From: a virus
DNA: 13,855 nt
UHGV virus genome: UHGV-0141996
Direction: 5' to 3' (one strand)
Under the pieces are notes generated by a model that saw only the letters and a list, made by a program, of their open reading frames with translations, ran no database searches and was not told where the DNA came from. Below, one piece after another: positions 1 through 13,855 of this stretch. Numbering within the stretch: the stretch's first letter is position 1; each line of letters opens with the position of its first letter. The translations under genes and the position numbers were made by a program.

Positions 1-15
1 GGTGTGTTTGAAAGT

Positions 16-39
16 GCGCGGGGGGGGTCATTCCCGCGC
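16..39 (-). terminator. Candidate hairpin downstream of the 50..964 minus-strand gene
   Basis: GC-rich inverted repeat GCGCGGG (16-22) / CCCGCGC (33-39) with a 10-nt loop, just 3' of the minus-strand stop at 50-52. The U-tract on the minus strand is poor (ACTTTCAAAC), so intrinsic-terminator status is uncertain. Confidence 0.3.
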
Positions 40-49
40 GTCCGGCGCT

Positions 50-964
50 TTATGGTAAGTATTTAAGTATTTCTGCTGCCCAGTTTACACGGTGGATGAC
101 ACGGGCATGGTGCAAGTTTCCGTCTAGTATTTCGGCTTTAGTTAGCTGGGATAACTGCTGCCAATTATTGTTAAGTATATAAGTTGCGTTATTACATTGT
201 GAGCTTTCTAGCACGTAAATGTTTTGGCCTGTGAACCCAAATATCACGTAGCCTTGGAACCCAGCTTGCCCAACCGCTACGAAATCTGGTTTTTTACTAT
301 TGATAAGTTCAAGTCTGCCTTCAACAACAGCGGTATTGCCCTTTCCCCTGATCTTAATAGCTGAAAGGATTTTTGAACCGATAGTACTCCAAGGCTGTTG
401 ACCCTGAGGCAGGAGGCTCCAGTTTAGTTTTATAGATTTACTTTTAACGATGGTATTAAGTTGGTCGTCAACAGTTTCGCACAACCCAAAAAGCTCTAAA
501 AAAAGATTAATGCAGTGAGCCACTAACTCTTTGTTGTTAGCTGTCAAACTTAGCTTTGGAGAGATGATCAACTTCTCCCCTTGCAGATTCTCTACAATCT
601 TTAACTCTATGCTTGGTGGAGGGGTGAGGATTCTCTTGTAGCGCTTATACTCAATTTCACGAGTGTCAGTAACTTCTTGAGTTGCGCCCCCTCCGATCCA
701 TTGCTTTCTAGTCCATGAAATTTGTCTGTATGCAGTTTCTTTAGGTGCTGTTTTGTCAGGTACTGATTTGCCATTAGCATTGAATCTGGTTATTGGCCCT
801 AAAATTTTGGGGAGGACTTCTTCACCTAAAGCTCTTTGACTTGAGAAACCAATAGAGTCCGTTTTCCCCGCATCTGGCAAAGAATGTGCAATGTAGATAT
901 CACGGCCATCAAAGTTAGGTATGTAATTATCAATATTTCGAATACGCTTTTTCTGAATAAGCAT
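50..964 (-). CDS. Hypothetical protein, 304 aa, AT-rich orphan; no recognisable motifs
   Basis: Uninterrupted 304-codon ORF with ATG start and a good Shine-Dalgarno (AAGGA, 7 nt upstream on the minus strand). Composition is visibly more AT-rich than the central operon. Hairpin immediately downstream. No catalytic or family motif recognised by eye. Confidence 0.7.
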   Translation of the reverse strand: MLIQKKRIRNIDNYIPNFDGRDIYIAHSLPDAGKTDSIGFSSQRALGEEVLPKILGPITRFNANGKSVPDKTAPKETAYRQISWTRKQWIGGGATQEVTDTREIEYKRYKRILTPPPSIELKIVENLQGEKLIISPKLSLTANNKELVAHCINLFLELFGLCETVDDQLNTIVKSKSIKLNWSLLPQGQQPWSTIGSKILSAIKIRGKGNTAVVEGRLELINSKKPDFVAVGQAGFQGYVIFGFTGQNIYVLESSQCNNATYILNNNWQQLSQLTKAEILDGNLHHARVIHRVNWAAEILKYLP

Positions 965-1802
965 GGATCGTTCCTTTTGATTTTATCTTACTGTTTACAT
1001 AACCAACCAAGCCGGGCACAATCGAGCCGTTAGAGACGATAGTGAGGCTAACAATCGTTATGAGTTTGCAGACTCATGGCGGTCATGCTTCATAGACCGG
1101 ATTCACGCAGGTGACTCCGGTTTTTTTATGCCCATCATTTATACATGGGCACAACATATAGGGTGTGTTAATAAGATTACCCCCTACATGTTCAGCATTC
1201 TAGTTAGGATTCTTTGCAGTACAAGGGTTGATTTTGAGGTTAAATTGAGGTTGTCAAAGGGAAATTTCGACCAACCCTACGTGCCGTAAGGCTTAGGCTG
1301 TATGTCAATGTTTCAGAAAAAAAAATGAAAATTTGATCGAGTGCTGATTTCTTTAGCACGAGAACATGAGATCGAACCAAAATATTGCAAAGTTTTGAAC
1401 AAAACTTGAACTGCCTCGTGTCTCCATAGCCAAGACGAATGCAGTTTAAATAAGCTAAGTCAGCTCTCAAAAGTCCTTTATGACCCGAACCAAAAATTGT
1501 ACCTCTTAAACCCCACCGCAAGCGGCTCTCCGGGGTTTGTGCGCATGGAGTAATGCGGTTGTACTGGGTATGTGCGCACAACCCTCTACAAGCCGCATTC
1601 TACCGTTAGCCTATAGCTGAATCCCCGGCTTGAAAAATTGCACGCTTATGGTTGCCCCTCCCTCAACTCTATAGCTCGCCCGCGCCCCCGTGCGCATGTG
1701 CGTGCCCGCGCGTCAGGGGTCGCTGAGAAAACCCTAAGATTTTGCTCATCCGAGGCAACCGTTGCAGGCGCGTGTTGCCGAGGGCACACTGCCAGTGTTT
1801 GA

Positions 1803-1908
1803 TGGTGTCATCAATCGTTCGATTCTTGCTACCTTCCTGAGTGATTACTATCTGGTGTCATCAATTTAGGGTTTGACTAAATGCTACCACCAATGCAATG
1901 ATGCTACC
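1803..1908 (+). promoter_or_regulatory. Repeat-bearing leader/promoter region upstream of the serine recombinase gene
   Basis: Exact 13-bp direct repeat TGGTGTCATCAAT at 1803-1815 and 1853-1865 (50 bp centre-to-centre). ATGCTACC at 1881-1888 and 1901-1908, plus TTGCTACC at 1826-1833. TTGACT -35-like hexamer at 1873-1878. SD GGAGAGGTG precedes the ATG at 1940. Confidence 0.35.
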
Positions 1909-1939
1909 GTTTTGTGATACCAGACGGGAGAGGTGAAGC

Positions 1940-2515
1940 ATGAGGACTTTTATCTACTGCCGCGTTTCAACACGCGAGCAGGATACGCAGAATCAGGTGC
2001 TGGCTATTGAGCGTGCCGGGTACACGGTGCCTGAGAGCAGGGTAATCAGCGAGGACATTTCCGGCAGCGTTCAGGCTATGCAGCGCCCTAAGTTTCGGGC
2101 GATGGTTGAGCATAAGCTGGAAGCGGGAGATCAGCTTGTCGTGCTGAAACTGGACAGGCTGGGGCGCGACAACATCGACGTGCAACAGACCATCGACATG
2201 CTGTTAGAACGTGGCGTGAAGGTGGTGTCTCTTGACCTGCCAGCGCGTGATCTGACTTCATCTGAGGGCAAGCTAATCCGCCAGATGTTTGGAGCTTTTG
2301 CTGAGTTCGAGCGAAACCGTATCCGTGAGAGGACGCTGGACGGGCTGGAGAAGGCGAAAGCCAATGGCGTTAAGCTGGGACGCAAGGAAGCCACCGACAC
2401 CACTGAAAAGGTGCTGGAGTTGCGGAGTGAGGGGCTGTCTCAATCGAAGGTAGCGAAGCGTCTCGGCGTTAGCGTGAGCACCGTTAAACGCCACTGGAAC
2501 AAGGGCGAGGAGTGA
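1940..2515 (+). CDS. Small serine recombinase (resolvase/invertase family), 191 aa
   Basis: N-terminal YCRVSTREQ motif with the catalytic serine. LVVLKLDRLGRD and FAEFERNRIRERT blocks align by eye with gamma-delta/Tn3 resolvase. C-terminal HTH (SQSKVAKRLGVSVSTVKRH). Strong SD. Confidence 0.9.
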   Translation: MRTFIYCRVSTREQDTQNQVLAIERAGYTVPESRVISEDISGSVQAMQRPKFRAMVEHKLEAGDQLVVLKLDRLGRDNIDVQQTIDMLLERGVKVVSLDLPARDLTSSEGKLIRQMFGAFAEFERNRIRERTLDGLEKAKANGVKLGRKEATDTTEKVLELRSEGLSQSKVAKRLGVSVSTVKRHWNKGEE

Positions 2516-3215
2516 TGGCCTACAACCGAATGAGGTGCTATGACTGGCCGTTACTGGGCTGTGGGTGATGGATGACCTACAGCTTTTGTATTAATTTCAG
2601 AGGGTTATGTTATGCGTAATATCATAACGATATGATTTATAATGTATTTTCGTATTACTTGCGGCTCTCGATGTGAAGAGGTGGCGGGGCTTTAGCCGTG
2701 CCAGACGATGAACATCGAGATCAGATTGTGAATGTGATTCATCACTGAACAATTCGAGGGATGGGGCAGGGGAAGGGATCAAAGGCTGCGTTGTCCAATC
2801 ACTAAGCTAGATTTGAAGCTGGTCAACACGTTAGTAGTATCTTTAAAGTTGCATTTTAAATACATGTACAAGAAAGGGTTCTTCCCTTACATCCCTTCTC
2901 CTAAATGTAGTTACGAGTGCTTCGCTCTCTTCACTTGCTGCGCTTCTCGCTATGCTCCAGCCCGCTCCATCGCCTTTGGCTCATTCCCGGACTTCGCCCG
3001 CTGTGATGCTCGGCCACTCTACGCAACCGTGCTTGCCGTGGCAGGCAACGCGGCGGGGATGTGTAGTGGAACGGTACTCTGTATCGGTATGATTACTGTA
3101 TTCAATCACATACTGGTATCAGTAGGTATCCTTCAAAACATCTTCATTCATTTCTGTATCGTTCAATCATCTTTCTTGTTCGTTTCCTTTCAGGTCTTAG
3201 CCGTTGGTCATTGGT

Positions 3216-3330
3216 CTTACTGCCTGCTGTGCTACTGCCAGCTATGGCACGCCGTCACGGTCTACTGTCTGTTACCTGTCCTACTGCCTTCACTGTCTGC
3301 CGTCTGTCAGTCCTACGGTCTGCCATCCGT
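3216..3330 (+). repeat. Iteron-like short repeat cluster in a pyrimidine-skewed ORF-poor region
   Basis: YTACTGYC-type motifs at 3216-3224 (CTTACTGCC), 3231-3239 (GCTACTGCC), 3261-3271 (TCTACTGTCTG) and 3281-3288 (CTACTGCC). CTGTCTG-type motifs at 3293-3308. Tandem CATCCGT CATCCGT at about 3324-3337. The plus strand is strongly C/T-rich. Confidence 0.4.
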
Positions 3331-3778
3331 CATCCGTTCGGCGCTCGCTTGTTTCGGCTGCGCCGCGCTCGCTCTGCGTATCTAGCGATACTATATCACT
3401 ATAGACACTTTCATAATTATATAATGATTACAGTAACTTATGTTTTCTGTTTTAAAAGCTACTAATAAGGAGATATAGAGCATTACTTACCCGCTTTTGA
3501 CCGACAAAAATCGCGTTGTTAAGTATTGCCAGCCCAGGCTCAATAAGGCTTAGCGAGGTGGTGGCTAAAAAATGAGCTAATGAAGGTATCTACTAAGGAG
3601 AAAGAATAACTCCCGAAGCGCGACAAACTCTCCGATTTTGAAAGTGACTATTAAGGCAGATAAAGACACTGACACTGTTGCTGACATGAAAACTTCTAAA
3701 AGGGCAGAGAGTCTGCCGAACCCGTACCGCTGACCCAACCTGAGCTAATACCTACCCCTATTTTCTGGAGATTTCACC

Positions 3779-5623
3779 ATGCCAACAAACCTACGCCGCC
3801 TGCTTGCGCAGGCTGCCGACGCTGACCCGCTCAATACTGCGGACGCAGATGTACAGCAAATGATCGCTGACGGGATTGTTATTCGACGTTCCAAGATATG
3901 CCCTGTAAAGCGTAAACCCGTTAAGGCGGCATACAACACAAAGACCGAAGAGTTTTATTACAATGCAGATGGCTCCGCGATGACCTTGCGGGAGTGGCGA
4001 ACGCTGCACGGTGTTCAACCGAAGAAACAAAAACAGCGCTCTGACACTGGGTTGCGGCAAGTCATCCAGCCCGGCGACGCGATTCACTGCCGACGCGCTG
4101 AGATTGAGCAATGGCTTAATAAGAAGCCCGCTCGTTATGTTGACCCGCTGCCGCCAGATTTTCCCGGTGTTCGCGTAGACGATGCCGCATTGAAACCGCG
4201 CGAGCACGCCGTGCCGGAAGCGACAACCGGACAGAATGCTTTTCTCAAAGCCTGCCGCGAGTTCCTGATTTGCGATGAGAAGACCATGCGCCGTATCAGT
4301 CGGGGCATGAACCAAATGGAAGCTATGCGCAACGCAGATTTCAAACGCTACGGAGACTCAGGGGAGTTTCGTCAATTGTGGTGTGGAGAGTCGAAGCCTA
4401 CCGAAGATAGATTTAATAGTTCTAATCATCATTGTGACCCGAACGGCTTGGCTGCTTCGCCGTCTGTGCCGCCACTGAATACTGCACCGTATGAGTTCCG
4501 CCCGCTGGCTCGCTGTGACCGAAACGCACGCGTTAGCCTGCTGCCACCTGATGGGCTGGAGTGGAGGCCGGGGCAGTTGTCTGTTGCTGATGCGATCTTT
4601 TCCCGTGGCAGTGATGTGCTTGCCGTACTGCCGACCGGGTATGGCAAAAGCGCCGCCTTCACTTATCCATTGATTTATGAGTCCCGCGCTGGCATTGGCC
4701 TGTCTGTAATCGTGGTTCCTACTAATACCCTTAAGCGTCAGATTCTCCGCCAGTTGCGGGAGGCTGGCATTCACGCTGTGGCCTTTGGCGATAAGCTACC
4801 GAGGCACCGCAACGCACAACAACTGGCGGGACTAGCAGCCGGGGCGTTCCGGGTTGCTGTTGTTTCGCCTGAACATCTGGTTCCGTCGAGTCAGGTTCTC
4901 GCGGCGCTGATGGCTTATGGCGTTGATCGTTTTATTATCGATGAGGCACACACGGTCAAAGACTGGGATTTCCGCCCAGCTTACGACGCAATGCAGCACA
5001 CACTACAGAATGCTTTTCCCTCGGCTCAGCGCTGCGTGTTTACGGCTACTCTACTACGTGAAAATGAGAGCGGTTTAATGGAGGCGCTGGGATGCCGTGG
5101 CGATTACGTTACATTCCGTGCTGATGTTGCTCGCGAGAATATCCAGTTGATTCCGGTCAGGCAGTGCCGCCAGCGATACCGCGCGGCTGTTGGTCTGGTC
5201 GAGGCTCTGCCAGAGGAAGAGAAGACGCTCATTCTAGTCAATGACCTTAAGACGTTGCGGGCGTACCTGAAACTCTTCGGCGACCGGGCGCGCCCATATC
5301 ACTCGAAGACGATGCACCTGAGCAACGAGGAACGCCACGCAAACGCTGAGTGGTTTGCCTCTGCGCCGGGCGCGATTCTGATTGCTACTAAAGCCTTCGG
5401 GCTGGGTGCTGATGTTCCTGATATCCGTAACGTTGTCGTGACATACGTTCCCGATGACTTGCCTGATCTCGTTCAGATGATTGGACGAGCCGGGCGCGAT
5501 GGGGAACCTGCCCGCGCTTTTCTGCTGTGGTCATCGCTGGCGCTGGATGTTGCTCCTGATGAGCTTGCTTACTTCTACCGCCCTGAAAACTGTAACTGGC
5601 AGTACATCGCTAAATACCTCTGA
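3779..5623 (+). CDS. RecQ-like superfamily-2 DNA helicase, 614 aa, with a roughly 280-aa N-terminal region of unknown function
   Basis: Helicase motif I LPTGYGKSAAF, motif II DEAH box FIIDEAHTV followed by DWDFRPAY (RecQ-like), FTATL, and motif VI QMIGRAGRDG. SD GGAG 9 nt upstream of the ATG. The N-terminal region has no recognisable primase or helicase motif. Confidence 0.85.
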   Translation: MPTNLRRLLAQAADADPLNTADADVQQMIADGIVIRRSKICPVKRKPVKAAYNTKTEEFYYNADGSAMTLREWRTLHGVQPKKQKQRSDTGLRQVIQPGDAIHCRRAEIEQWLNKKPARYVDPLPPDFPGVRVDDAALKPREHAVPEATTGQNAFLKACREFLICDEKTMRRISRGMNQMEAMRNADFKRYGDSGEFRQLWCGESKPTEDRFNSSNHHCDPNGLAASPSVPPLNTAPYEFRPLARCDRNARVSLLPPDGLEWRPGQLSVADAIFSRGSDVLAVLPTGYGKSAAFTYPLIYESRAGIGLSVIVVPTNTLKRQILRQLREAGIHAVAFGDKLPRHRNAQQLAGLAAGAFRVAVVSPEHLVPSSQVLAALMAYGVDRFIIDEAHTVKDWDFRPAYDAMQHTLQNAFPSAQRCVFTATLLRENESGLMEALGCRGDYVTFRADVARENIQLIPVRQCRQRYRAAVGLVEALPEEEKTLILVNDLKTLRAYLKLFGDRARPYHSKTMHLSNEERHANAEWFASAPGAILIATKAFGLGADVPDIRNVVVTYVPDDLPDLVQMIGRAGRDGEPARAFLLWSSLALDVAPDELAYFYRPENCNWQYIAKYL

Positions 5624-5660
5624 GTCGAAAGGCTCTCCCTGATTCTCTGGAGTTAATCAT

Positions 5661-6098
5661 ATGCCTGTTACCGAACATGCGCAGCGTCGTGCTGCGCGTG
5701 CGGATGCGCTCATCACCGCACAACTAGCCTTTGCCCTGAATGGGTACAACTGGGATGAACTGGCCGAACCTCATCGCAAGACCCTTAATCGTGAGGCCAT
5801 CATTAGCGAGGTATCTACACCGCTGGAGCGATATTGCCTGCTGAATGATTGCGAGCCGTGGGAGTGTCTGGCCGCTGTACTGAACCGCATGAAAAGGCCG
5901 GATGGCTCGCGTCGCTGGAAAGCCGTCCGGTTGTCCGACCGGGTTTTCAATGGCCGGGTGCATCCAGTGCGCAAGACTCCTGATGAAGTTTACGCCGCCA
6001 TTGCCCGCCGCTTGTTCCTGCCGAAGCCTGTGCATCAAGAAGTGATACAGCACATCCGTGCGCTTGGCTTGTTACCAGTTGGAGATAACCACCAATGA
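5661..6098 (+). CDS. Hypothetical protein, 145 aa
   Basis: ORF with GGAG SD 8 nt upstream. Stop overlaps the next start (ATGA at 6095-6098). Codon usage and GC match the operon. Confidence 0.6.
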   Translation: MPVTEHAQRRAARADALITAQLAFALNGYNWDELAEPHRKTLNREAIISEVSTPLERYCLLNDCEPWECLAAVLNRMKRPDGSRRWKAVRLSDRVFNGRVHPVRKTPDEVYAAIARRLFLPKPVHQEVIQHIRALGLLPVGDNHQ

Positions 6099-6304
6099 CG
6101 AAATCTGAATTTGAAAATGAAACATGGCGAATGAAGGGCTTGCTTCTTGGGGCGCTGATTCGCCGCCTTGAGGAAGATAAGGCTGGCGAGTCGCGCATGG
6201 TCGCAGCGGAGTTATCCAGTGCGGTCAACTTCCTTAAGGCCAACGCCGTAGAAGCACCGGACACATCATTCAACAACGTGTTCCCGGAGGATGACGAACA
6301 ATGA
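6095..6304 (+). CDS. Hypothetical small protein, 69 aa
   Basis: ATGA overlap with the upstream gene, GGAGA SD, and its stop overlaps the next start (ATGA at 6301-6304). Confidence 0.55.
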   Translation: MTKSEFENETWRMKGLLLGALIRRLEEDKAGESRMVAAELSSAVNFLKANAVEAPDTSFNNVFPEDDEQ

Positions 6305-6477
6305 CCCCTGAACAATTCAGACAATGGTTCGCCACGCTGCCACCGAACTATCAGAGCGCCGCACGCACCATGTACGACAACGCCCGCAAGTCGGGCATAC
6401 ATACCGCGTCAAGCCTTGCGCTGATTCACACGTTGGTTACTGACCAGATCAAATTTGATTCGGAGTTTAATTTATGA
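6301..6477 (+). CDS. Hypothetical small protein, 58 aa (below the ORF-track length cutoff)
   Basis: Hand-translated: ATG at 6301, TGA at 6475-6477, giving MTPEQFRQWFATLPPNYQSAARTMYDNARKSGIHTASSLALIHTLVTDQIKFDSEFNL. GGAGG SD upstream. ATGA overlaps at both ends, continuing the translational-coupling pattern. Confidence 0.45.
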   Translation: MTPEQFRQWFATLPPNYQSAARTMYDNARKSGIHTASSLALIHTLVTDQIKFDSEFNL

Positions 6478-7037
6478 CTTTGAGTATTACCGATATCCAG
6501 CGCATTAACGCGCTGGCTCATAAGCACCTAAAGAACAATGAAGAGATTGCAGCGGAGACAGGTCATACCCTGACCGATATTGATGCTGTAATCCGTGGCG
6601 TCTATGTCGATGACTTGGCCGAACATTGGAAAGACGATGCTGATATTACTCTGGCGGAGTACAACGCCATCCGCAGCCGCTATAAGCCCGGCAAGTTGCA
6701 CCGCGATACAGAGTTTATGATTGCCCGCGATATGCTGATTCGCCCTGAGACTGTGCTGGCTATCGCCCATTCCCGCTTTAGCAACGTCCACACGCACCCA
6801 GTGCCGAAAGCCGTCAAAGCAAAGCCGGAGAAAGCGAAAGTAGTGCGCAAGTTAGTGCTTACTGATTTAGATGAAATCCACAAGTTAGAGCGCTTCGGTT
6901 GGCCTGCTGCGGAGATCGCCGGGAAGCTGGGCGTCCCTGTTGAAGTCGTCGCGCATGTGCAACGCTGTCTGAGAAATCGTTGGTCGTACCCGGATACTCT
7001 GGAGTTTGTTAACTCCAAATTCAGCGAGGCTGAATGA
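6474..7037 (+). CDS. Hypothetical protein with C-terminal HTH-like segment, 187 aa
   Basis: ORF with GGAG SD. C-terminal LTDLDEIHKLERFGWPAAEIAGKLGVPVEVVAHV resembles an HTH/sigma-region-4-like DNA-binding segment. ATGA overlap with the next gene. Confidence 0.6.
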   Translation: MTLSITDIQRINALAHKHLKNNEEIAAETGHTLTDIDAVIRGVYVDDLAEHWKDDADITLAEYNAIRSRYKPGKLHRDTEFMIARDMLIRPETVLAIAHSRFSNVHTHPVPKAVKAKPEKAKVVRKLVLTDLDEIHKLERFGWPAAEIAGKLGVPVEVVAHVQRCLRNRWSYPDTLEFVNSKFSEAE

Positions 7038-7270
7038 TGGCAGAGAACGAACCGCTGCACCCCGCCGTTAACCCTGATCTCTACGTGAACCTTGACGAAC
7101 AACGCGAAGGATACGCTCCGATTGAATCACGGGGTTGGGATGTGCTGACGCAGAACCTGACCGGGGAAGGGCGAATCGACCCCAGCCAAACACTTAACCA
7201 GAATCCGAAACAACGCCCGCGCGGCTCCGTTGGTGAGCGTCGTTGGCTTCGTAAACGTAGATTACTTTAA
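7034..7270 (+). CDS. Hypothetical small basic protein, 78 aa
   Basis: ATGATG tandem start (7034 or 7037) with GAGG upstream. Arg/Lys-rich C-terminus. Confidence 0.5.
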   Translation: MMAENEPLHPAVNPDLYVNLDEQREGYAPIESRGWDVLTQNLTGEGRIDPSQTLNQNPKQRPRGSVGERRWLRKRRLL

Positions 7271-7282
7271 CGAGGAATTACC

Positions 7283-7522
7283 ATGAGCAAAACTATCGTA
7301 TTGCTGCCGCCACGCAAGAATACAGACTGGGCTGCACAATTAAAGCTGATTTCTGAATCGCTTGAGGTGAGTCAGGCAGACCTCGCCCACGCCTATCAGG
7401 TTGATCGTCGGGATATGGGTAAAGCGTATCACGGTGTGCGCAAACTGCCGGAACGTTGTGTGCCTGTTCATATGCTGTTGTTAGCGCAGGTACACGACTT
7501 TAGAGCATTATCAGGAGAATAA
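7283..7522 (+). CDS. Hypothetical small protein, possible HTH DNA-binding, 79 aa
   Basis: GAGGAA SD 5 nt upstream of the ATG. Central segment SQADLAHAYQVDRRDMGKAYHGVRKLPE is compatible with a Cro/XRE-like HTH; weak. Confidence 0.5.
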   Translation: MSKTIVLLPPRKNTDWAAQLKLISESLEVSQADLAHAYQVDRRDMGKAYHGVRKLPERCVPVHMLLLAQVHDFRALSGE

Positions 7523-7525
7523 TTT

Positions 7526-8254
7526 ATGTCTGACCAGAATGTTAATCCGTACCTTTCCGGTGCTGATACTGCATCGCAGCAATCGCCGTACATGGCTGCA
7601 CCTGTTGGCGCTGACAATGGCGCATCTCGCTTTAGCTCTGCGCCTGCTGATGCTGATTTCCTCCGTACCCAGCCCGTTAATGGCAATGATGGCGGCCAAT
7701 GGAATAATGGCAACATTGCTAATCAGCAAGACCAGAACGCGGACAGCGCCGGGGCGCAGGTGGGCGATACTATCCCCCTGATGGATGGAACAGCTATTGA
7801 GTACACCGCCGAGCTACAAGGGTTAATGGGGCAGTTTCACCAGTCTGTCGAAAGCCAGCTAGGGCAGGGGACAGTTGACGCGATGTTGCAGTACGCTGGC
7901 ACACTCGACGCTGGGACGCAATCCACCCTTGAACGTATGGTTATGTCTGGCGACCCTGCGCAGATGCAGCGGGCGGTTCAGTACCTGCAAGAACGTATGG
8001 CTGCTGGTTCTGCTTCCGGGTACGTTCCTGCACAGGGAAACCCATACGGCCAGCCTGCCGCGCAACCTGTCGGAATGTCACATGCTGAGTTTATAGCAGC
8101 GTATGACCAGCTTTCGCAGTGGGCGCAGCAATCAGGGTATGGCCCCGGCCATCGCCAGTACGACGAACAATACCGTGCTCTGGTTGCGCAGCGCTCCGCT
8201 GGCAAACGTGCTGGTCGCTTACGCCCAACGGTGGAATGCGCCCTGCAAGACTGA
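7526..8254 (+). CDS. Gln/Ala/Gly-rich low-complexity protein, 242 aa; possible scaffolding protein
   Basis: Strong SD AGGAGA. Low-complexity Q/A/G/D-rich composition with predicted helical C-terminal half. Sits immediately upstream of the capsid-like gene region, as scaffold genes do in T7-like and P22-like head modules. The functional call is positional and compositional only. Confidence 0.4.
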   Translation: MSDQNVNPYLSGADTASQQSPYMAAPVGADNGASRFSSAPADADFLRTQPVNGNDGGQWNNGNIANQQDQNADSAGAQVGDTIPLMDGTAIEYTAELQGLMGQFHQSVESQLGQGTVDAMLQYAGTLDAGTQSTLERMVMSGDPAQMQRAVQYLQERMAAGSASGYVPAQGNPYGQPAAQPVGMSHAEFIAAYDQLSQWAQQSGYGPGHRQYDEQYRALVAQRSAGKRAGRLRPTVECALQD

Positions 8255-8317
8255 GTGCGCACCAACCCGGTACTACCACACCAATCTAAGCGCATGAGTC
8301 CCCGCAAGCCGCATTCT
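8255..8317 (+). repeat. Intergenic GC-rich motif block related to the 1539-1601 block
   Basis: GTGCGCACCAACCC (8255-8268), GCGCATGAGT (8290-8299) and CAAGCCGCATTCT (8305-8317) recur in the same orientation at 1539-1601: GTGCGCATGGAGT, GTGCGCACAACCC (1572-1584) and CAAGCCGCATTCT (1589-1601, exact 13-mer). Confidence 0.45.
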
Positions 8318-8360
8318 GCGCGGCATCTGAAAGCCTGTTTTTAATTAACCGAGGTTCGTA

Positions 8361-8774
8361 ATGAGTACCTGTAATTTCCATGCCGTGGTGCGTGTCGCTG
8401 ACGTGCGCCCGGATTTCGCCTTGCCGCTGGGTAGATGCGACCACATTTACCCTGAGCGTGTGCAGCACGTTTTCAATCCAGACGAAGCGGTTTATATCGT
8501 TGCCCGGTCTGCCACATCCGGCACCCGCACATCTGGCGTTAGCCGTGGGCTTTCCCCTGTGCTGCCGCCGAAGATGGCCGAGCGGATGCGCGAACGTAAA
8601 CGGCACGAGAAGAATCGAGCCAGACCCCGCAAGGTGATCACTGAGGCGATACGCGCTGACATTATCGATCGCTCTGCAAAAGGCCAGAAGAATCGTTACA
8701 TTGCAAGCAAGGTTGGCGTGTCTGAAACCTCTGTGCGGAAGGTGTTGAACATGGCGCGTATGAGTGCGCACTAA
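8361..8774 (+). CDS. HTH-domain protein, 137 aa; possible regulator or packaging-associated DNA-binding protein
   Basis: GAGGT SD. Basic Arg/Lys-rich middle (RMRERKRHEKNRARPRK) and C-terminal HTH-like segment (IIDRSAKGQKNRYIASKVGVSETSVRKVLN). Confidence 0.55.
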   Translation: MSTCNFHAVVRVADVRPDFALPLGRCDHIYPERVQHVFNPDEAVYIVARSATSGTRTSGVSRGLSPVLPPKMAERMRERKRHEKNRARPRKVITEAIRADIIDRSAKGQKNRYIASKVGVSETSVRKVLNMARMSAH

Positions 8775-8993
8775 TGCAAGGTAATACGTTCGCCTTACTT
8801 CACGCGCACTAACCCCTGAGAACCGCGCCAGCTCTGGCCTCAAAACGCCCATTTCGGGGCACCTCATCCCTCTTAATCGATACCGTTCTGAATCCTGCCT
8901 CGGCGGGAGGATTACGCACGCCCGCGCCATGACGATGGCCGGGCTTATCTCGTCAGTGAATCCGCTGGCACAACCTACGTAGGAGTTTTACAT

Positions 8994-9989
8994 ATGGCCG
9001 ATAACATTTACTCGCCTGACCAGTTCCGCCCACATTATGGCGGGGTGGAATCTGACAATGATATTCACATCGAGGCTTATGACCGGGATGTCCAGACCCG
9101 TTTAGAGTCCAAATCCGTATTTCTGGCCGAGGGGCTGTCTACATACAGGCCGCTGAAAGCCAGCAACCAATACCGCATTGATCGCCTGAGTGGTGATCTT
9201 GAGGTGAAGGGCAGAACCGCAGGGCAATCGCTGGAGCCTACCGCCGTTAAGTCGGACAAGTTGGTTATCTCTGTGGATACGCTGAGCTATATCCGCATCC
9301 CGATTGACTATCAGGATGACTGGACAGCTCCCACCTTTCGCGCAGAGCTGAGCCGCAATATCGGTACTGCTCACGCTAAATTCTACGACGAAGCGCACAC
9401 CATCCAGCTAATCAAAGCGACTGACTTCGTACCGCCGCCGACACTGCAACCAACGTTTAACCCGCTTACGGATAATGTTGTCTCGCTCGACCTGACAGCG
9501 GGGAGCGAAGAGGATGCAGCTAACGAACTGGTTCACGCTATCAAAGCTGCTGTTAATCGATTCCTGACTGAGAAAGATATTCCGGTGGCGGAGCTGGTAC
9601 TGCTTATCGACCCGGCTTGGTTCAGCATCCTGATGGAACATAAGAAGCTGATGAACGTCCGTTACAGCCGGGATAGTGGCAACGATTACGCATGGCGTCG
9701 TGTTGGCTATGTCGCTGGGGTGCGAGTTATCGAGCTGAATAGTTACCCGCAGGAAGCCATTACCGGGCATGAACTGGGCGCTGATTATGACGTTACCGCA
9801 GAGGAAGCGCTGACGAGGGCGACGCTGTTTAAACCTTCCTCGGTACTGTTGACGGTCGAAGCGCAGAGCGTCATCAATCGCCAGTGGGATGATGAAAGCG
9901 AAATGACGATGGTGATGGACTCATATCGCCTGTTCAACGTTGGGCTGCGTCGTCCTGACTGCGTTATCAATTTCCGACAAGCTGCATAA
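8994..9989 (+). CDS. Putative major capsid protein, 331 aa, T7 gp10-like by eye
   Basis: Strong SD AGGAG. Length and block pattern resemble T7 gp10 from memory: KLVISVDTL..IPIDYQDD...RAEL..NIG.AHA and a C-terminal VLLIDPAWFSIL ... GVRVIEL ... LF..S.V.L.V block. No protease gene adjacent, consistent with a scaffold-dependent capsid. Confidence 0.55.
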   Translation: MADNIYSPDQFRPHYGGVESDNDIHIEAYDRDVQTRLESKSVFLAEGLSTYRPLKASNQYRIDRLSGDLEVKGRTAGQSLEPTAVKSDKLVISVDTLSYIRIPIDYQDDWTAPTFRAELSRNIGTAHAKFYDEAHTIQLIKATDFVPPPTLQPTFNPLTDNVVSLDLTAGSEEDAANELVHAIKAAVNRFLTEKDIPVAELVLLIDPAWFSILMEHKKLMNVRYSRDSGNDYAWRRVGYVAGVRVIELNSYPQEAITGHELGADYDVTAEEALTRATLFKPSSVLLTVEAQSVINRQWDDESEMTMVMDSYRLFNVGLRRPDCVINFRQAA

Positions 9990-10005
9990 CTGGAGGGGCT
10001 GAGTC

Positions 10006-10515
10006 ATGGTTAATGATGCTTACGCCCCTGAGCTGTTGCGATCCCTTTTCCTGTATGACCCGGTGACAGGTCGCCTGCACCATAAAGCTAACCGACGCCG
10101 GGTTAAGGCTGGCTCCTATGCTGACTCCACCCAGCGAGCTGATGGCTATCGTCAAGTTGCCCTGCGACTTGATGGCAAGCAGTACCAGCTAAAAGCCCAT
10201 CGCGTGGCATGGATTCTTGCGCATGGCGCTATTCCTCACGGTAAGCAGATCGATCACATCAACGGTATCCGTGACGACAACCGCCTATGCAATCTGCGTT
10301 TGGTTACGCAGCGGGAAAACGACCAGAACCGACGCAAGGCAAGGGGATATAGCTGGAATAAAGGCAGTAGCAAATGGGAGGCTTACATACGCGTTGATGG
10401 TGTACTCCGTCACCTTGGCTTATTTACTACCGAAGCGGCGGCGCGTGCTGCCTATCTAAAAGCTAAAGCCAGATACCATCCCTCAACGCCAGCCGATTTG
10501 TTGCAGGCTGCCTAA
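10006..10515 (+). CDS. HNH endonuclease with C-terminal AP2 domain, 169 aa
   Basis: HNH motif HRVAWILAHGAIPHGKQIDHINGIRDDNRLCNLRLVTQRENDQN. AP2-like segment YSWNKGSSKWEAYIRVDGVLRHLGLFTTEAAARAAYLKAKARYH. SD GGAGGGG. Confidence 0.85.
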   Translation: MVNDAYAPELLRSLFLYDPVTGRLHHKANRRRVKAGSYADSTQRADGYRQVALRLDGKQYQLKAHRVAWILAHGAIPHGKQIDHINGIRDDNRLCNLRLVTQRENDQNRRKARGYSWNKGSSKWEAYIRVDGVLRHLGLFTTEAAARAAYLKAKARYHPSTPADLLQAA

Positions 10516-10533
10516 TCCTCGGAGGTTCCATAT

Positions 10534-10959
10534 ATGGCTGATGAAAAGCCGATTAGAGCGCTGGCAGATGATGACCCACGCCGCCAGCGGTACGCTGAAC
10601 TGATGGCGCAGGCTGGCCGCATGACTATTCCCCGACTGCATCCGGGCGATGCTAATAGTGTTATGAGCCAACTTGCGACGATGCTCGGCGCACCTGTCCC
10701 GATAGTCGGTGCTATGACTGAGCACGCCGCTGCATGGCGTGCCTGTATGCTGGAGCAAGGGCTTGGCGATCTTCTGGATGGCTTGAGTAAACAGGTGCTG
10801 ACCATCTTCTTTCTGCTCTGCTGGAGAGACAGCGCCTTGCGATTGGCGGGTAAGCAAAAGGAACGGCTTACAGCGGCCAGCGAGGGTTTGACCATTGAGC
10901 AATACCGGGCGATGCACCCGGCTTACAGAGAGAATAAAGAAGATGATAACCACGATTAA
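10534..10959 (+). CDS. Hypothetical protein, 141 aa, in the position often occupied by a small terminase subunit
   Basis: Strong SD GGAGG 8 nt upstream. Lies immediately downstream of the HNH gene. No recognisable motif; the small-terminase suggestion is positional inference only. Confidence 0.55.
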   Translation: MADEKPIRALADDDPRRQRYAELMAQAGRMTIPRLHPGDANSVMSQLATMLGAPVPIVGAMTEHAAAWRACMLEQGLGDLLDGLSKQVLTIFFLLCWRDSALRLAGKQKERLTAASEGLTIEQYRAMHPAYRENKEDDNHD

Positions 10960-11242
10960 ATTAAGGTGGCGGTACATCGAGCCGCCGCCAATGACTGGCG
11001 CACTCGCTGACCTGAAACAGTGGGTAATGGATACCGGAGAGCCTGAGCTGGAAGCTGAATTTCGTAAGCTGCTGGGGCTAATGCGCCGCAACGGTATCAG
11101 TGACGAACGCGTTAATGCGATGGCTGATGAGCTTTATGTTCTGGTTTGCCAACGCCAGTGCGAAGAATACGAAGCCTGCAAGCGGGCTGCGTCTGACAAT
11201 GGAGACTTTGAATCATGGTTACACGGACAGACCAACTACTAA
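10943..11242 (+). CDS. Hypothetical small protein, about 99 aa; start ambiguous (alternative upstream start at 10895)
   Basis: The ORF track starts at 10895 and overlaps the upstream gene by 65 bp. The in-frame ATG at 10943 (MITTIKLRW...) is preceded by AAAGAAG and gives a minimal overlap. Cys-containing segment CQRQCEEYEAC. Confidence 0.45.
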   Translation: MITTIKLRWRYIEPPPMTGALADLKQWVMDTGEPELEAEFRKLLGLMRRNGISDERVNAMADELYVLVCQRQCEEYEACKRAASDNGDFESWLHGQTNY

Positions 11243-11640
11243 GAAAAGCGATGCGGGACTATCTGGAACACCTCGGCAACATGCCGTTGGCTGAACGGAT
11301 TACAAATGCTGCTGTATTCGAAGATGTGTATCGCTTCCTGTTGAATGGTTCCGGTCGGCTGGAGTTGCGCCGCGCTGATGTGGCCGCTGTTCGTATCTTC
11401 CTGTGGAATTACCAATACCGACGCTGTGCGGTGACAGGTAAGCCGCTGCGCCTTACGTCTGCCGTGCTAGATCACTGCCACCGAACCGGGCGCGTGCGTG
11501 CTGTGGTGCATCGTTCTGCTAACGCTGCTGAGGGAGGCCGCTACGTTGGGCGGACGTGTGGTGTTAGCGTTGCGAACTTAAGGGCTATGGTTGGCAGCTA
11601 TCGCAAGCAATACACCGGTATTGGCGTGTTATATCCATAA
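11215..11640 (+). CDS. Endonuclease VII-like (HNH superfamily) protein, 141 aa
   Basis: Segment CAVTGKPLRLTSAVLDHCHRTGRVRAVVHRSANAAEG matches the Endonuclease_7 pattern (C..C-like ... DH.H.TG.VR ... N...G) with substitutions. GGAG 9 nt upstream. Last gene of the plus-strand operon. Confidence 0.55.
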   Translation: MVTRTDQLLRKAMRDYLEHLGNMPLAERITNAAVFEDVYRFLLNGSGRLELRRADVAAVRIFLWNYQYRRCAVTGKPLRLTSAVLDHCHRTGRVRAVVHRSANAAEGGRYVGRTCGVSVANLRAMVGSYRKQYTGIGVLYP

Positions 11641-11642
11641 TA

Positions 11643-11661
11643 GCGGGGTAATAAACCCCGC
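11643..11661. terminator. Candidate bidirectional terminator hairpin between convergent gene blocks
   Basis: Perfect 7-bp stem GCGGGGT / ACCCCGC with AATAA loop, 3 bp after the plus-operon stop (11640) and 21 bp after the minus-strand gene stop (11682). Flanking A/T-rich sequence on both sides, but no long U-run. Confidence 0.5.
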
Positions 11662-11681
11662 CGAAATAGTAGCGTAGCCAC

Positions 11682-12584
11682 TCAAACAGGAATGTTGTAG
11701 TAATGACAAATGGCATTAGTTAGTAGAGCTGGTGCAGCAGATGCTGCAATATTTAGCGTTCCCGCATATGCTTTACCAATCATATCACCAAGCCACCCTC
11801 CAACTTTTCCTCCTAAATTATCCATAGTGGTGGGCACTGGAGATTCTTGTATAGCTTGCTGAAGCGTTGTTATGTCTGCTTCTGAAACTCCCCATTCTTT
11901 AAGTTGTTTCTCCAGCGAATTAAAATCTCCTGCTATAATCGTGTTATTCTGGTTAATGTCTCCAGTATTCCCAGCACCAATACTGCCTGCATTATTAACT
12001 GCGCCATTAAAAATATTAGTATTGTTAACCGTCATAGGAGCGACCTCTTTTTCTGCCTGAGTGAACAATAACCCTTCACCCATAATCCCCTGTTTTTCTA
12101 ATTCAAGTGACCAATCAAGAATCTTGTTTCTTACAGTTGTGACTATGTGAGCAAATTTACCAGAACTAAAGAACCAGCATATTTCAGGTCTTGAATGTTG
12201 ATCGTGATATAACATTTCAGCCATTTCTAGTGGGATAGGGAGCCTTATATTTCCTTTTGTGCCCTCTGCTCGTATCATTGATGCTATAGATTCAGTGAGT
12301 GTATAAGTAGTAAACTTACGCATAATCTTTGCGCTTATGTTACCAAGATCAACTGGAATCCAGCCGTTGAAAGGGTTATAGGCTTTTAACTGACCGTGCC
12401 CAGTTCTATATTCTGGGGCTGATGCAATTGTAGGGTAGCCATTCAATTCGTGCTCAATCCAGCCTGTAACATCTTCCAGGCCAAGCTTGACGGCTATTAC
12501 TTTAGCTTTCATTAAAAGAGCGATAATATCAGTGTTAGGATCGCTTGCAAGAGCTTGAAGTTCAAGAACTGGTGAGTTAGCCAT
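11682..12584 (-). CDS. AT-rich cargo gene, 300 aa; putative AbiTii-like abortive-infection protein with Asn/Gly-rich C-terminal half
   Basis: Intact ORF with strong SD (TAAGGA 6 nt upstream on the minus strand). N-terminus (LELQALASD..IIALLMKAKVIAVKLGLEDVTGWIEHELNGY) resembles AbiTii-type domains as I recall them; unverified. C-terminal half is N/G-rich low complexity ending in a hydrophobic segment. Located between the integrase and the phage-like operon; markedly AT-rich. Confidence 0.45.
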   Translation of the reverse strand: MANSPVLELQALASDPNTDIIALLMKAKVIAVKLGLEDVTGWIEHELNGYPTIASAPEYRTGHGQLKAYNPFNGWIPVDLGNISAKIMRKFTTYTLTESIASMIRAEGTKGNIRLPIPLEMAEMLYHDQHSRPEICWFFSSGKFAHIVTTVRNKILDWSLELEKQGIMGEGLLFTQAEKEVAPMTVNNTNIFNGAVNNAGSIGAGNTGDINQNNTIIAGDFNSLEKQLKEWGVSEADITTLQQAIQESPVPTTMDNLGGKVGGWLGDMIGKAYAGTLNIAASAAPALLTNAICHYYNIPV

Positions 12585-12603
12585 TTCAAGTCCTTAGTAG
12601 TGT

Positions 12604-12631
12604 TTTGATAAGATATCTTACCCTTATCAAA
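12604..12631. promoter_or_regulatory. Palindromic candidate operator in the leader of the AbiTii-like gene
   Basis: Perfect 12-bp palindrome TAAGATATCTTA (12609-12620) nested in a 9-bp inverted repeat TTTGATAAG (12604-12612) / CTTATCAAA (12623-12631), 20-50 bp upstream of the minus-strand start codon at 12584. Confidence 0.35.
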
Positions 12632-12671
12632 CTGTGCAGTCTAAGGTTGGTCGGTCAAACTCACCTTTAAG

Positions 12672-13829
12672 TTATTTGCTTATTTCATCATTTGTGATTT
12701 GCTCGACATACTTCCTCGTCTCTATAGGAGAAGCTGCATTTTTCGAGTAAGTTTTGAAGCTCTCTGTACTCCCGCGCTCATGACCGACGAGCAGGGCAAT
12801 ACGATCCTCTGGTACTTGAGCACGGTCGAGCTGTTGCACAAACGCATGGCGGAGTGAGTGAAACACTTTTCTCTCTGCGGCAGGTTCGCCAAGCGCTTTG
12901 CGCTTCGCCCGTGTGAACTGCTGGGTGTGCCACGTTGAACGCTTTCCGTCTGCCCGGTCTGTGATTGAGGCGTGATAGAACAGAAAACCGCTATGTGTGG
13001 TCTTGAGCAACGACTTCACGAGAGGGATTAGCTTGCTGTGTACTGGGACGATTCGTGCCGCGCTCTTGGTCTTCCCCTCGGTGATCTCAAAGCACAAAAC
13101 GCCCTCGATGGTTTTAATACTGCTCTCACGCAGCGTACATATTTCATTGATCCGCATACCGCTGTAAGCACCAATAGCCGTTACCGCCTTCATCTCGTCA
13201 TCAAGTAAGGTATAGATCTTTGCCAGCTCTCCCGGTGCGAAGACTTCATAGCTGACCTTGCTGCTTTTTGCTTCGAGCGCATGACCACGCCAAGGATTGT
13301 CCTGTGGTGCATCGTGATAGCGATTGCGTGCCAAATCCCAAATCTGTGCCAGTGCGCTTATATAGTTCTGGATGGTTTGCGGCGCTCGCTCAGTTTTGAG
13401 CTTATCTAACCAGCCTGTAACTATGGATCGATTAATATCCCGCAACTGAATATCTTTCTTTTTCAGGTGGGTTAACAGCACCTCTACGGCTTTGTTGGTC
13501 TTGGATAGCGTGGTTAGCTTTCTCTTCTCACTGTATTGGAGAAGATACAGATCGCGCATTTTAAGTAGGGAAGGGCAAGCCTGAACCGATGCACCAAATG
13601 ATGCGGGGGCTTCCTTAGCATACACACTGACACGGCGTAGCTCATCAATGATTTGATCTACGGATGAGCCGCCTTGCGGCTTAAGCAGATTCCGTAAGCG
13701 AGTCCATTCCAGAGCAATAGCATCGCGAAACAAACGCGCTTGCCGTATGTCTCGTGTCCCTGTGCTTTTCATAAAGTAGCGCTTCCCTTGGAACAGGTGG
13801 CGCATGTAGATGGGAATAGCTATCCGCAC
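12672..13829 (-). CDS. Tyrosine recombinase / phage-type integrase, up to 385 aa; start ambiguous (GTG at 13829, ATG at 13805 or 13772)
   Basis: Tyrosine-recombinase motifs: Arg in GMRINEICTLR, HSLRHAF (His-x-x-Arg), LLVGHERGSTESFKTYSK (His and catalytic Tyr). The ORF track begins with GTG. The internal ATG at 13772 is preceded by AAGGGAAG and would give 366 aa. Confidence 0.9.
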   Translation of the reverse strand: MRIAIPIYMRHLFQGKRYFMKSTGTRDIRQARLFRDAIALEWTRLRNLLKPQGGSSVDQIIDELRRVSVYAKEAPASFGASVQACPSLLKMRDLYLLQYSEKRKLTTLSKTNKAVEVLLTHLKKKDIQLRDINRSIVTGWLDKLKTERAPQTIQNYISALAQIWDLARNRYHDAPQDNPWRGHALEAKSSKVSYEVFAPGELAKIYTLLDDEMKAVTAIGAYSGMRINEICTLRESSIKTIEGVLCFEITEGKTKSAARIVPVHSKLIPLVKSLLKTTHSGFLFYHASITDRADGKRSTWHTQQFTRAKRKALGEPAAERKVFHSLRHAFVQQLDRAQVPEDRIALLVGHERGSTESFKTYSKNAASPIETRKYVEQITNDEISK

Positions 13830-13855
13830 GAGGTAATTCCCGCAGGGATCTAAAA

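Follow-up and report, generated by a model that had tools for sequence, protein, structure and literature searches.

A RecQ-type helicase with an orphan N-terminal domain in a probable satellite of T7-like Bonnellvirus phages

What does a RecQ-like helicase do in a small mobile element when its N-terminal part belongs to no known family? We studied this question in UHGV virus genome UHGV-0141996, a stretch of 13,855 nucleotides (nt) that we call the window, in which the helicase gene lies at positions 3779 to 5623. The initial annotation had regarded the N-terminal part as the likeliest initiator or origin-recognition module for a putative origin region just upstream, with repeats at 3216-3330 as its site, and this interpretation was partly supported. 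Comparative analysis indicates that the gene belongs to an integrative island, in all probability a satellite with T7-like Bonnellvirus phages as helpers. Our preferred reading, held tentatively and at less than even confidence, is that the protein would be a helper-induced helicase for satellite replication or DNA processing, with an N-terminal domain that targets the motor to a partner. The more notable finding is the setting, apparently a family of satellites of T7-like phages undescribed in the literature that we found.

The helicase and its orphan N-terminal region

The gene and its parts are as follows (aa, amino acids; SF2, superfamily 2; pI, isoelectric point).

3779..5623, stop codon included, plus strand: complete helicase open reading frame (ORF), 614 aa, with the ATG at 3779 and a stop codon ending at 5623
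3779..4558, plus strand: N-terminal region, residues 1-260, three blocks, no family match
Residues 1-90: basic N-region block (pI 9.8), partly modeled as a small alpha/beta unit
Residues 91-165: most conserved N-region block
Residues 166-245: helical and most variable N-region block
4559..5542, plus strand: RecQ-clade SF2 helicase core, residues 261-588, ~53% of the protein, motifs 0 to VI intact
Residues 262-266: motif 0, WRPGQ
Residues 285-291: Walker A, PTGYGKS
Residues 388-391: DEAH
Residues 422-425: TATL
Residues 536-543: ATKAFGLG
Residues 569-575: GRAGRDG
5543..5620, plus strand: short conserved C-terminal tail, 26 aa, replacing the RecQ Zn-binding, winged-helix and HRDC modules

The ORF is preceded by GGAG at 3767-3770, 8 nt 5' of the ATG, and is 99.9% identical to Escherichia coli E2348/69 gene WP_001142869.1, named "DEAD/DEAH box helicase." It had been credited with all RecQ/SF2 motifs, and this was borne out by Pfam, by alignment to PDB structures and by the motif positions. 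Pfam placed DEAD at residues 264-427 (E value, 1.4e-21) and Helicase_C at residues 478-575 (E value, 8.5e-14). The closest solved structures were those of bacterial RecQ (4tmu, E value of 1.9e-30; 1oyw, E value of 2.2e-29), aligned over residues 261-585, and these were followed among the PDB matches by human WRN, RECQ4, BLM, RECQ1 and RECQ5. The SF2 core contains the whole series expected of the RecQ family, namely, motifs 0, I, Ia, II (DEAH), III, IV, V and VI. The core occupies about half of the protein and not the C-terminal two-thirds first assigned to it. The best reading of the gene product is an ATP-driven DNA helicase with a RecQ-type two-RecA motor, an activity predicted from these motifs.

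Compared with the bacterial RecQ proteins of E. coli (1OYW) and Cronobacter (4TMU), the protein shares the two-RecA SF2 motor, the xRPGQ form of motif 0, the DEAH box, a recognizable aromatic-rich loop after motif II and the QxxGRAGRDG motif VI. Unlike them, it shows only ~30% identity, is encoded in a mobile island rather than at a recQ locus, and combines a 260-residue orphan N-region with the lack of zinc, winged-helix and HRDC modules. Curated NCBIfam cutoffs were not reached for recQ_fam (140.3 versus 219.8 bits) or recQ (153 versus 640.2 bits). There was no Pfam match in the helicase to RecQ_Zn_bind (PF16124) or RQC (PF09382) at an E value of ≤1 and none to HRDC (PF00570), a domain of most bacterial RecQ proteins; the protein stops at residue 614, and the 29 residues that remain after residue 585 include one Cys, compared with the four of the RecQ Zn-binding subdomain. 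The canonical RecQ proteins recovered by a motor-only search do have the RecQ Zn-binding/RQC Pfam domains. "RecQ-like" fits the motor only, as membership in RecQ fails on the cutoffs, RQC and HRDC. The same search returned family members at ≥49% identity and then ordinary RecQ proteins at ≤35%, with a sharp gap between them. Against seven homologues (Nei-Gojobori method), the ratio of nonsynonymous to synonymous substitution rates (dN/dS) of the motor was 0.10 to 0.13, which denotes purifying selection.

The N-terminal region had been described as an uncharacterized domain of roughly 280 residues without a primase, AAA+ or known origin-binding signature. The description held, with no primase, AAA+ or initiator signature, and the length came down to ~245 to 260 residues. 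A match to a known primase or initiator family was looked for in Pfam, NCBIfam, PHROGs and PDB searches, and none was found. For the N-region, Pfam gave no match at an E value of ≤10 (five family members scanned), PHROGs gave none at an E value of ≤10, NCBIfam gave nothing at an E value of ≤1 beyond one chance-level match (E value, 0.13), and a profile search of PDB sequences gave no real match (best E value, 0.45). Columns kept in both subclades of the family include W73, G78, QPGD at 97-100, D127, R132, H143, G151, N153, R160, C165, W201, C246 and R248; the conserved columns contained no DxD/H primase set, Walker motif or Cys4 site.

An exhaustive HMMER scan of 1.84 billion representative proteins gave 14 N-region matches, among which the only divergent full-length homologue was P0018 (33% identity in the N-region). 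The remaining matches were same-family members or fragments, apart from P0026, which we rejected as a low-complexity false positive. P0024 was considered as a stand-alone N-terminal block and set aside as uninformative, as it lies at the edge of a 521-nt contig. Nothing further came from a word-indexed search that started from the P0018 N-domain. One-genome-per-species scanning (185,579 species) gave eight loci, all in Enterobacterales (Kosakonia, Kluyvera, Enterobacter, Trabulsiella and Rosenbergiella); a metagenome collection gave 30 loci, every one at ≥69% identity, and IMG/VR gave one. The N-region was confined to Enterobacterales and invariably fused to the same motor, and both halves diverge at similar rates.

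Against the same seven homologues, dN/dS was 0.14 to 0.27 for residues 1-245 and 0.04 to 0.18 for residues 91-165, and these low values argue that the N-region is translated and under constraint. Codons 1-165 (window 3779-4273) of L006 and L007 have a synonymous divergence (dS) of 0.16 to 0.37 from the window, and codons 166-614 (4274-5620) have a dS of 1.2 to 1.7. The near identity of the first part next to a diverged remainder indicates recombination, with a breakpoint close to residue 165, and a modular N-region. As judged from conservation and these searches, the N-terminal ~260 residues are a genuine uncharacterized domain under selection, whose detectable relatives all belong to one small family.

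A probable satellite of T7-like phages

Positions 3000-6200 of the window were 99% identical to the chromosome of E. coli O127:H6 E2348/69, where the element has a tRNA-Leu gene on one side and a tyrosine integrase gene on the other. In that genome, 31-bp direct repeats of the tRNA-Leu 3' end bound the element 15.06 kb apart (L001, 7971-23031). By this comparison, the window (1-13855) covers the greater part of an integrative element of ~15 kb at tRNA-Leu. The recognizable genes other than the helicase are the following.

1940..2515, plus strand: serine recombinase of the invertase/resolvase type (Resolvase, E value of 1.8e-36; phrog_125), left of the noncoding region
6095..6304, plus strand: 69-aa ORF with a weak likeness to T7-type small terminase (PF11123, 21.3 bits, below the cutoff of 27.5)
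7526..8254, plus strand: short scaffolding-like protein, 242 aa (phrog_1018)
8994..9989, plus strand: major capsid protein (phrog_267, E value of 2.9e-69)
10006..10515, plus strand: HNH endonuclease (library matches)
11215..11640, plus strand: endonuclease VII (EndoVII)-type junction resolvase, final gene of the rightward operon (library matches)
11682..12584, minus strand: AbiTii abortive-infection protein, variable cargo, only 61% identical to its E2348/69 counterpart
12672..13829, minus strand: tyrosine integrase (library match and E2348/69 synteny)

Among 50,697 phage records, the best phage matches of the capsid protein were Bonnellvirus capsid proteins at 56 to 57% identity. The C-terminal 108 aa of the scaffolding-like protein are 31% identical to the C terminus of the altidsur scaffold. 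The element has six small ORFs, of which the one at 6095-6304 also shares 11 of 20 residues with the altidsur small terminase and may redirect packaging. Bonnellvirus phages are 42-kb virulent T7-like podophages with a phiKMV arrangement and with hosts in E. coli, Enterobacter, Kosakonia, Pantoea and Cronobacter. The window ORFs scanned included no recognizable portal, tail, large terminase or polymerase, and the window contained no Rfam families or tRNA genes.

The helicase follows a 1.26-kb noncoding region and is the first gene of a long rightward operon, in agreement with its initial placement as the first gene after the putative origin region. Its product is, moreover, the one recognizable replication-type protein of the element; the neighboring ORFs o145 and o187 had no solved-structure relatives, and therefore no alternative initiator was identified. 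The gene order (recombinase, noncoding region, helicase, small ORFs, scaffold, capsid, HNH, EndoVII, integrase) was kept in full-length loci from six genera and also in a divergent subclade (L044 and L045) with 33% identity in the N-domain, ~50% in the core and 59% in the capsid.

Among 5,426 complete E. coli genomes, 59 had the capsid gene, and the helicase occurred in 59 chromosomes and as a fragment on one plasmid. In the E. coli genomes listed, the two genes always co-occurred, a few kilobases apart. The element is thus present in ~1% of complete E. coli genomes, including the enteropathogenic E. coli prototype E2348/69, and T7-like phages are widely considered for therapy, which gives the question a practical side.

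The features used to recognize phage satellites are present: an integrase with att repeats, a size far below that of the helper (~42 kb), a partial virion gene set tied to a specific helper and helper-derived cis DNA. These features make it probable that the island is a satellite of T7-like Bonnellvirus phages. It resembles cf-PICI, PICI, PLE and PICMI in its integrase and att sites, partial virion genes, helper-derived cis DNA, defense cargo and size of about one-third of the helper genome. Unlike those, its apparent helper is a virulent T7-like member of the Autographiviridae, and its expression seems wired to the helper RNA polymerase. More distant elements (L010, L006 and L007) have upstream cassettes with no match in the phage collection.

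Temperate phages and a few virulent myo- and siphophages are known to have satellites. T7-like phages need only minutes to shut down host transcription and break down host DNA. A full-text literature search of a limited collection found no description of a satellite of the Autographiviridae. If our reading is correct, an island that is wired to the helper RNA polymerase and encodes a capsid, a scaffold and a helicase of its own would illustrate how a parasite withstands the T7-like regime.

The ends of the element carry variable cargo, with two ORFs without assignment at 50-1581 (minus strand) and AbiTii at the other end. In another element, L048, the cargo at 576-2431 consists of a DNA methylase and an Eco29kI-type restriction enzyme. 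Both cargo ends look like the defense hotspots of other satellites. We also considered the many contigs of 14.5 to 15 kb that contain the helicase gene as excised or packaged molecules. This was rejected, as L048 (14.8 kb) begins and ends inside the 31-bp att repeat and its ends are therefore attributed to an assembly break and not to excision.

Phage-like DNA and promoter-like motifs upstream of the helicase

The noncoding DNA between the recombinase and the helicase contains the following features.

2516..3090: conserved noncoding block, kept across the element family
3212..3441: phage-like stretch, 230 bp, 87 to 98% identical to noncoding DNA of 15 Bonnellvirus-type phages
3400..3413, minus strand: copy of the promoter-like motif found at 3581, within the phage-identical stretch and directed leftward into the repeats
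3422..3441, plus strand: TAATGATTACAGTAACTTAT, common to the phage, which has two copies
3581..3594, plus strand: phage-RNA-polymerase-type promoter-like motif TGAAGGTATCTACT, ending 185 nt 5' of the ATG
3639..3652, plus strand: second promoter-like motif TGAAAGTGACTATT, ending 127 nt 5' of the ATG

The repeats that had been reported at 3216-3330 do exist, as CTG-rich degenerate short repeats at 3216-3337. They lie mostly within the phage-like stretch, and their designation as an origin was not supported; they are mostly helper-phage DNA. In the phage, the counterpart of 3212-3441 has on one side the endolysin gene, which closes the late region, and on the other the early genes; the Kc261 phage record begins at a gene and not at a physical end, so this placement is relative to genes and not to terminal repeats. 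The stretch is likely a cis site for the packaging, replication or transcription machinery of the helper.

Part of this stretch resembles promoters. TAATGATTACAGTAACTTAT is similar to the KP34 strong promoter TAATGTTACAGGAGTA, which was experimentally defined (PMC6834552). The shared stretch also contains TATCACTATAGACACTTTCAT, the reverse complement of ATGAAAGTGTCTATAGTGATA. In altidsur, ATGAAAGTGTCTATAGTGATA lies on the coding strand directly after the RNA polymerase gene and at other intergenic positions. T7, SP6 and KP34 have a polymerase-specific promoter directly after the RNA polymerase gene (PMC6834552), and because of this matching position we take ATGAArGTGTCTAyw as the probable promoter of the Bonnellvirus RNA polymerase.

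With no more than one mismatch, TGAARGTNNCTAYT occurred three times in the window versus 0.17 times expected by chance, and all three copies were within 3400-3652. A looser form of the motif, counted in 40 related loci whose counts are not independent, was found at 2.48 per kb in the 500 nt 5' of the helicase (plus strand) versus 0.05 per kb elsewhere, a 50-fold difference. In these loci, the upstream motif was often at the fixed offsets -139, -197 and -94. No sigma-70-like site was found near the helicase gene. The divergent element L045 has six ACTAAGGnGAG motifs at 8640-8850, 5' of a block of HNH, small-ORF and helicase genes. Arrays of two to six such motifs also stand 5' of the helicase operon in related elements. 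The divergent promoter-like motifs of the window, which match the one after the Bonnellvirus RNA polymerase gene, and these arrays suggest helper-polymerase-driven induction and possibly titration of the helper polymerase.

Several smaller observations concern the same region. A second, weaker phage-like patch, the 80 nt at 1623-1702, matches phage DNA that directly follows the endolysin gene (77.5% identity). The distance between the two patches is ~320 bp in the phage and ~1.5 kb in the island, where they flank the serine recombinase gene. Near-palindromic copies of ATGATTACWGTA at 3089-3100 and 3424-3435 flank a 320-bp segment with the phage-like repeats and could, near the invertase-type recombinase gene (1940-2515), be recombination or inversion sites. 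After the shared promoter-like motif, TTCTGTTTT occupies 3445-3453, and the equivalent phage position reads ATCTGTTTT. The TTCTGTTTT region presumably resembles the T7 class II pause/termination signal ATCTGTT at the concatemer junction.

Possible roles of the helicase

In the role that we tentatively favor, a helper-induced helicase for satellite replication or DNA processing, the gene would be silent in the uninfected cell, and the single-subunit RNA polymerase of the helper would transcribe it from the motifs 127 to 185 nt upstream. The helicase would serve the satellite's own DNA amplification by unwinding the excised element where phage transcription or strand invasion has opened it, and the helper or host replisome would then copy the element into packageable DNA. 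The excised 15-kb element would be packaged into small capsids assembled from capsid and scaffold proteins of the satellite. In place of the C-terminal modules of RecQ, the N-region would provide targeting or substrate binding, and its target would be a DNA site or a protein partner other than the phage-derived repeats at 3216-3330. We prefer this role because the motor and N-region are intact and constrained, because the gene belongs to the invariant core and opens the operon, and because it encodes the only replication-type protein of the element and stands behind promoter motifs.

Other satellites offer a partial parallel. P4 alpha, SaPI/PICI Pri-Rep and PLE RepA are either SF3/D5-type helicases with primase domains or RepA_N initiators, and they bind gene-adjacent iterons. 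Like them, the present protein is a large, element-specific DNA-metabolism protein that heads an apparently induced operon and is the sole replication candidate. Unlike them, its motor is of the SF2 RecQ type, without iterons: Pfam, NCBIfam and PHROGs gave SF2 only, with no SF3/AAA+ or primase domain found in the helicase. No iteron origin co-varying with a specificity domain was found either, as the CTG-rich repeats do not co-vary with the N-domain. A RecQ motor without Zn, winged-helix and HRDC modules but with an orphan N-domain is a compact test case for the retargeting of SF2 helicases, and it bears on whether a nonhexameric SF2 helicase can be the dedicated helicase of a replicon.

Several points weigh against the replication role. 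RecQ-type SF2 helicases are not known to be replicative or initiator helicases of phages or satellites, and known satellites use SF3/primase-helicase or RepA-type initiators. The role is reached largely by elimination, and neither an iteron array nor a recognizable origin was found in the window; tandem repeats were likewise absent from the window. The Bonnellvirus promoter consensus comes from motif position and is not a published promoter, and the motif enrichment was counted in loci that share ancestry. Structure prediction of the N-domain with AlphaFold2 (AF2) gave a model in part, with a mean predicted local distance difference test (pLDDT) score of 53 and values of 80 to 88 only at residues ~24-80, and a fold search with the modeled part gave no fold match; the prediction therefore lends no support to DNA or protein binding. 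A single-sequence AF2 run on the full protein was of no use (mean pLDDT, 35). The analysis shows the domain anatomy, the conservation, the confinement to this element family, the synteny, the phage-identical DNA and the enrichment of the promoter motif, and from there satellite status, helper-polymerase dependence and the replication role are inferred.

A more specific version is that the helicase is the replication initiator of an undescribed satellite family of virulent T7-like (Autographiviridae) phages, switched on by the helper RNA polymerase, with the orphan N-domain recruiting the RecQ-type SF2 motor to a satellite-specific site (candidate, 2778-3090). We consider this version unlikely; if true, it would be an initiator architecture without precedent among phages, plasmids and satellites.

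The protein could instead process branched DNA. A branch-processing or recombination helicase of the T4 UvsW, RecG or RecQ-like kind would remodel R-loops, D-loops and junctions together with EndoVII and HNH, yielding unbranched concatemers for the helper terminase rather than initiating replication. The RecQ-clade motor fits this role, as does a weaker PHROGs match to the Holliday-junction branch-migration helicase phrog_6819 (E value, 4.6e-6), and EndoVII and HNH are encoded in the same operon and equally conserved. T7-like packaging requires debranched concatemers (compare T7 gene 3). A possible functional analogue is T4 UvsW, an SF2 helicase whose N terminus forms a small DNA-binding domain and whose substrates are R-loops and branched DNA, on which it works ahead of endonuclease VII; EndoVII is encoded in the element, too. 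UvsW was not among the best 60 PDB matches listed. However, with an endonuclease and an exonuclease already encoded by the helper, it is not obvious why this function would be needed, and the large orphan N-domain is left unexplained. We hold this role, too, to be unlikely.

The N-region might also be a known domain that has diverged beyond detection, for example, a winged-helix/excisionase-like DNA binder or a primase, and this would be compatible with any role. The alignment is shallow and holds one divergent subclade only, which limits both profile sensitivity and AF2 quality, and residues ~66-116 give, by eye, the impression of an excisionase/MerR-type helix-turn-helix. Set against the empty family searches and the lack of primase columns described above, such an origin of the domain seems quite unlikely.

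We find it improbable that the protein is an antiphage or helper-interference effector, whether a DpdF/PsyrT-like defense helicase or one that displaces helper replication or packaging proteins. One point for defense is PADLOC model PDLC02858 "DpdF," which matches residues 112-614 (window 4112-5620) at 920 bits, and other DpdF submodels and PsyrT match the core with E values of 1e-39 to 1e-53. DpdF, the helicase of the Dpd 7-deazaguanine DNA-modification/restriction system, does have a RecQ-like core. The 920-bit match, however, is near perfect and includes the orphan region, and PDLC02858 therefore evidently derives from this same satellite helicase family, which makes the label circular. Since the model effectively describes the satellite helicase, defense pipelines will mislabel these islands as Dpd components. 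NCBIfam DpdF (NF041063) gave 124.4 bits versus a cutoff of 550, below the family, and no dpdA (tRNA-guanine transglycosylase-like), dpdB, dpdC or other dpd cluster gene and no PsyrA partner was matched among the window ORFs. DpdF and PsyrT membership was rejected on the NCBIfam cutoff and the absence of partner genes. The island has the defense cargo AbiTii, and satellites commonly interfere with their helpers (PMC9410903 and PMC10002752). Nevertheless, the helicase is an invariant core gene in a fixed position, whereas the defense cargo is variable and located at the two ends.

The initial proposal, in which the N-domain is an origin-recognition module that binds the 3216-3330 repeats and the protein a new initiator-helicase that melts that origin, appears very improbable: the helicase is the first gene 3' of the repeats, its N-domain has no known fold or family, residues 1-90 are basic and no other initiator candidate exists in the element, but nearly all of the repeats lie in Bonnellvirus-like DNA, and the phages that have them contain no homologue of the helicase beyond a generic core at ≤31% identity. 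The phage-like stretch accompanies N-domains that are 100 to 90%, 86%, 73% and 69% identical to that of the window (the 69 to 73% cases being L028, L033 and L040) and is absent from L004, L019 and L020 despite N-domains that are 90 to 91% identical. The proximal block 3442-3778 is likewise exchanged, and codons 1-165 recombine independently of the adjacent upstream DNA. As the stretch is swapped independently of the N-domain variant and the phages lack the helicase, binding of the N-domain to these repeats is disfavored.

The upstream block 2778-3090 behaved differently. It was present wherever the N-domain was ≥85% identical to that of the window, including L006 and L008, whose motors are 73 to 76% identical, and absent wherever the N-domain was ≤73% identical. 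This co-variation is a lead that reflects one or two events, and linkage could explain it. The block, in which either the N-domain or the recombinase may have its site, has an AT-rich center at ~2840-2880, which is flanked by an 18-nt inverted repeat (2768-2785 and 2885-2902).

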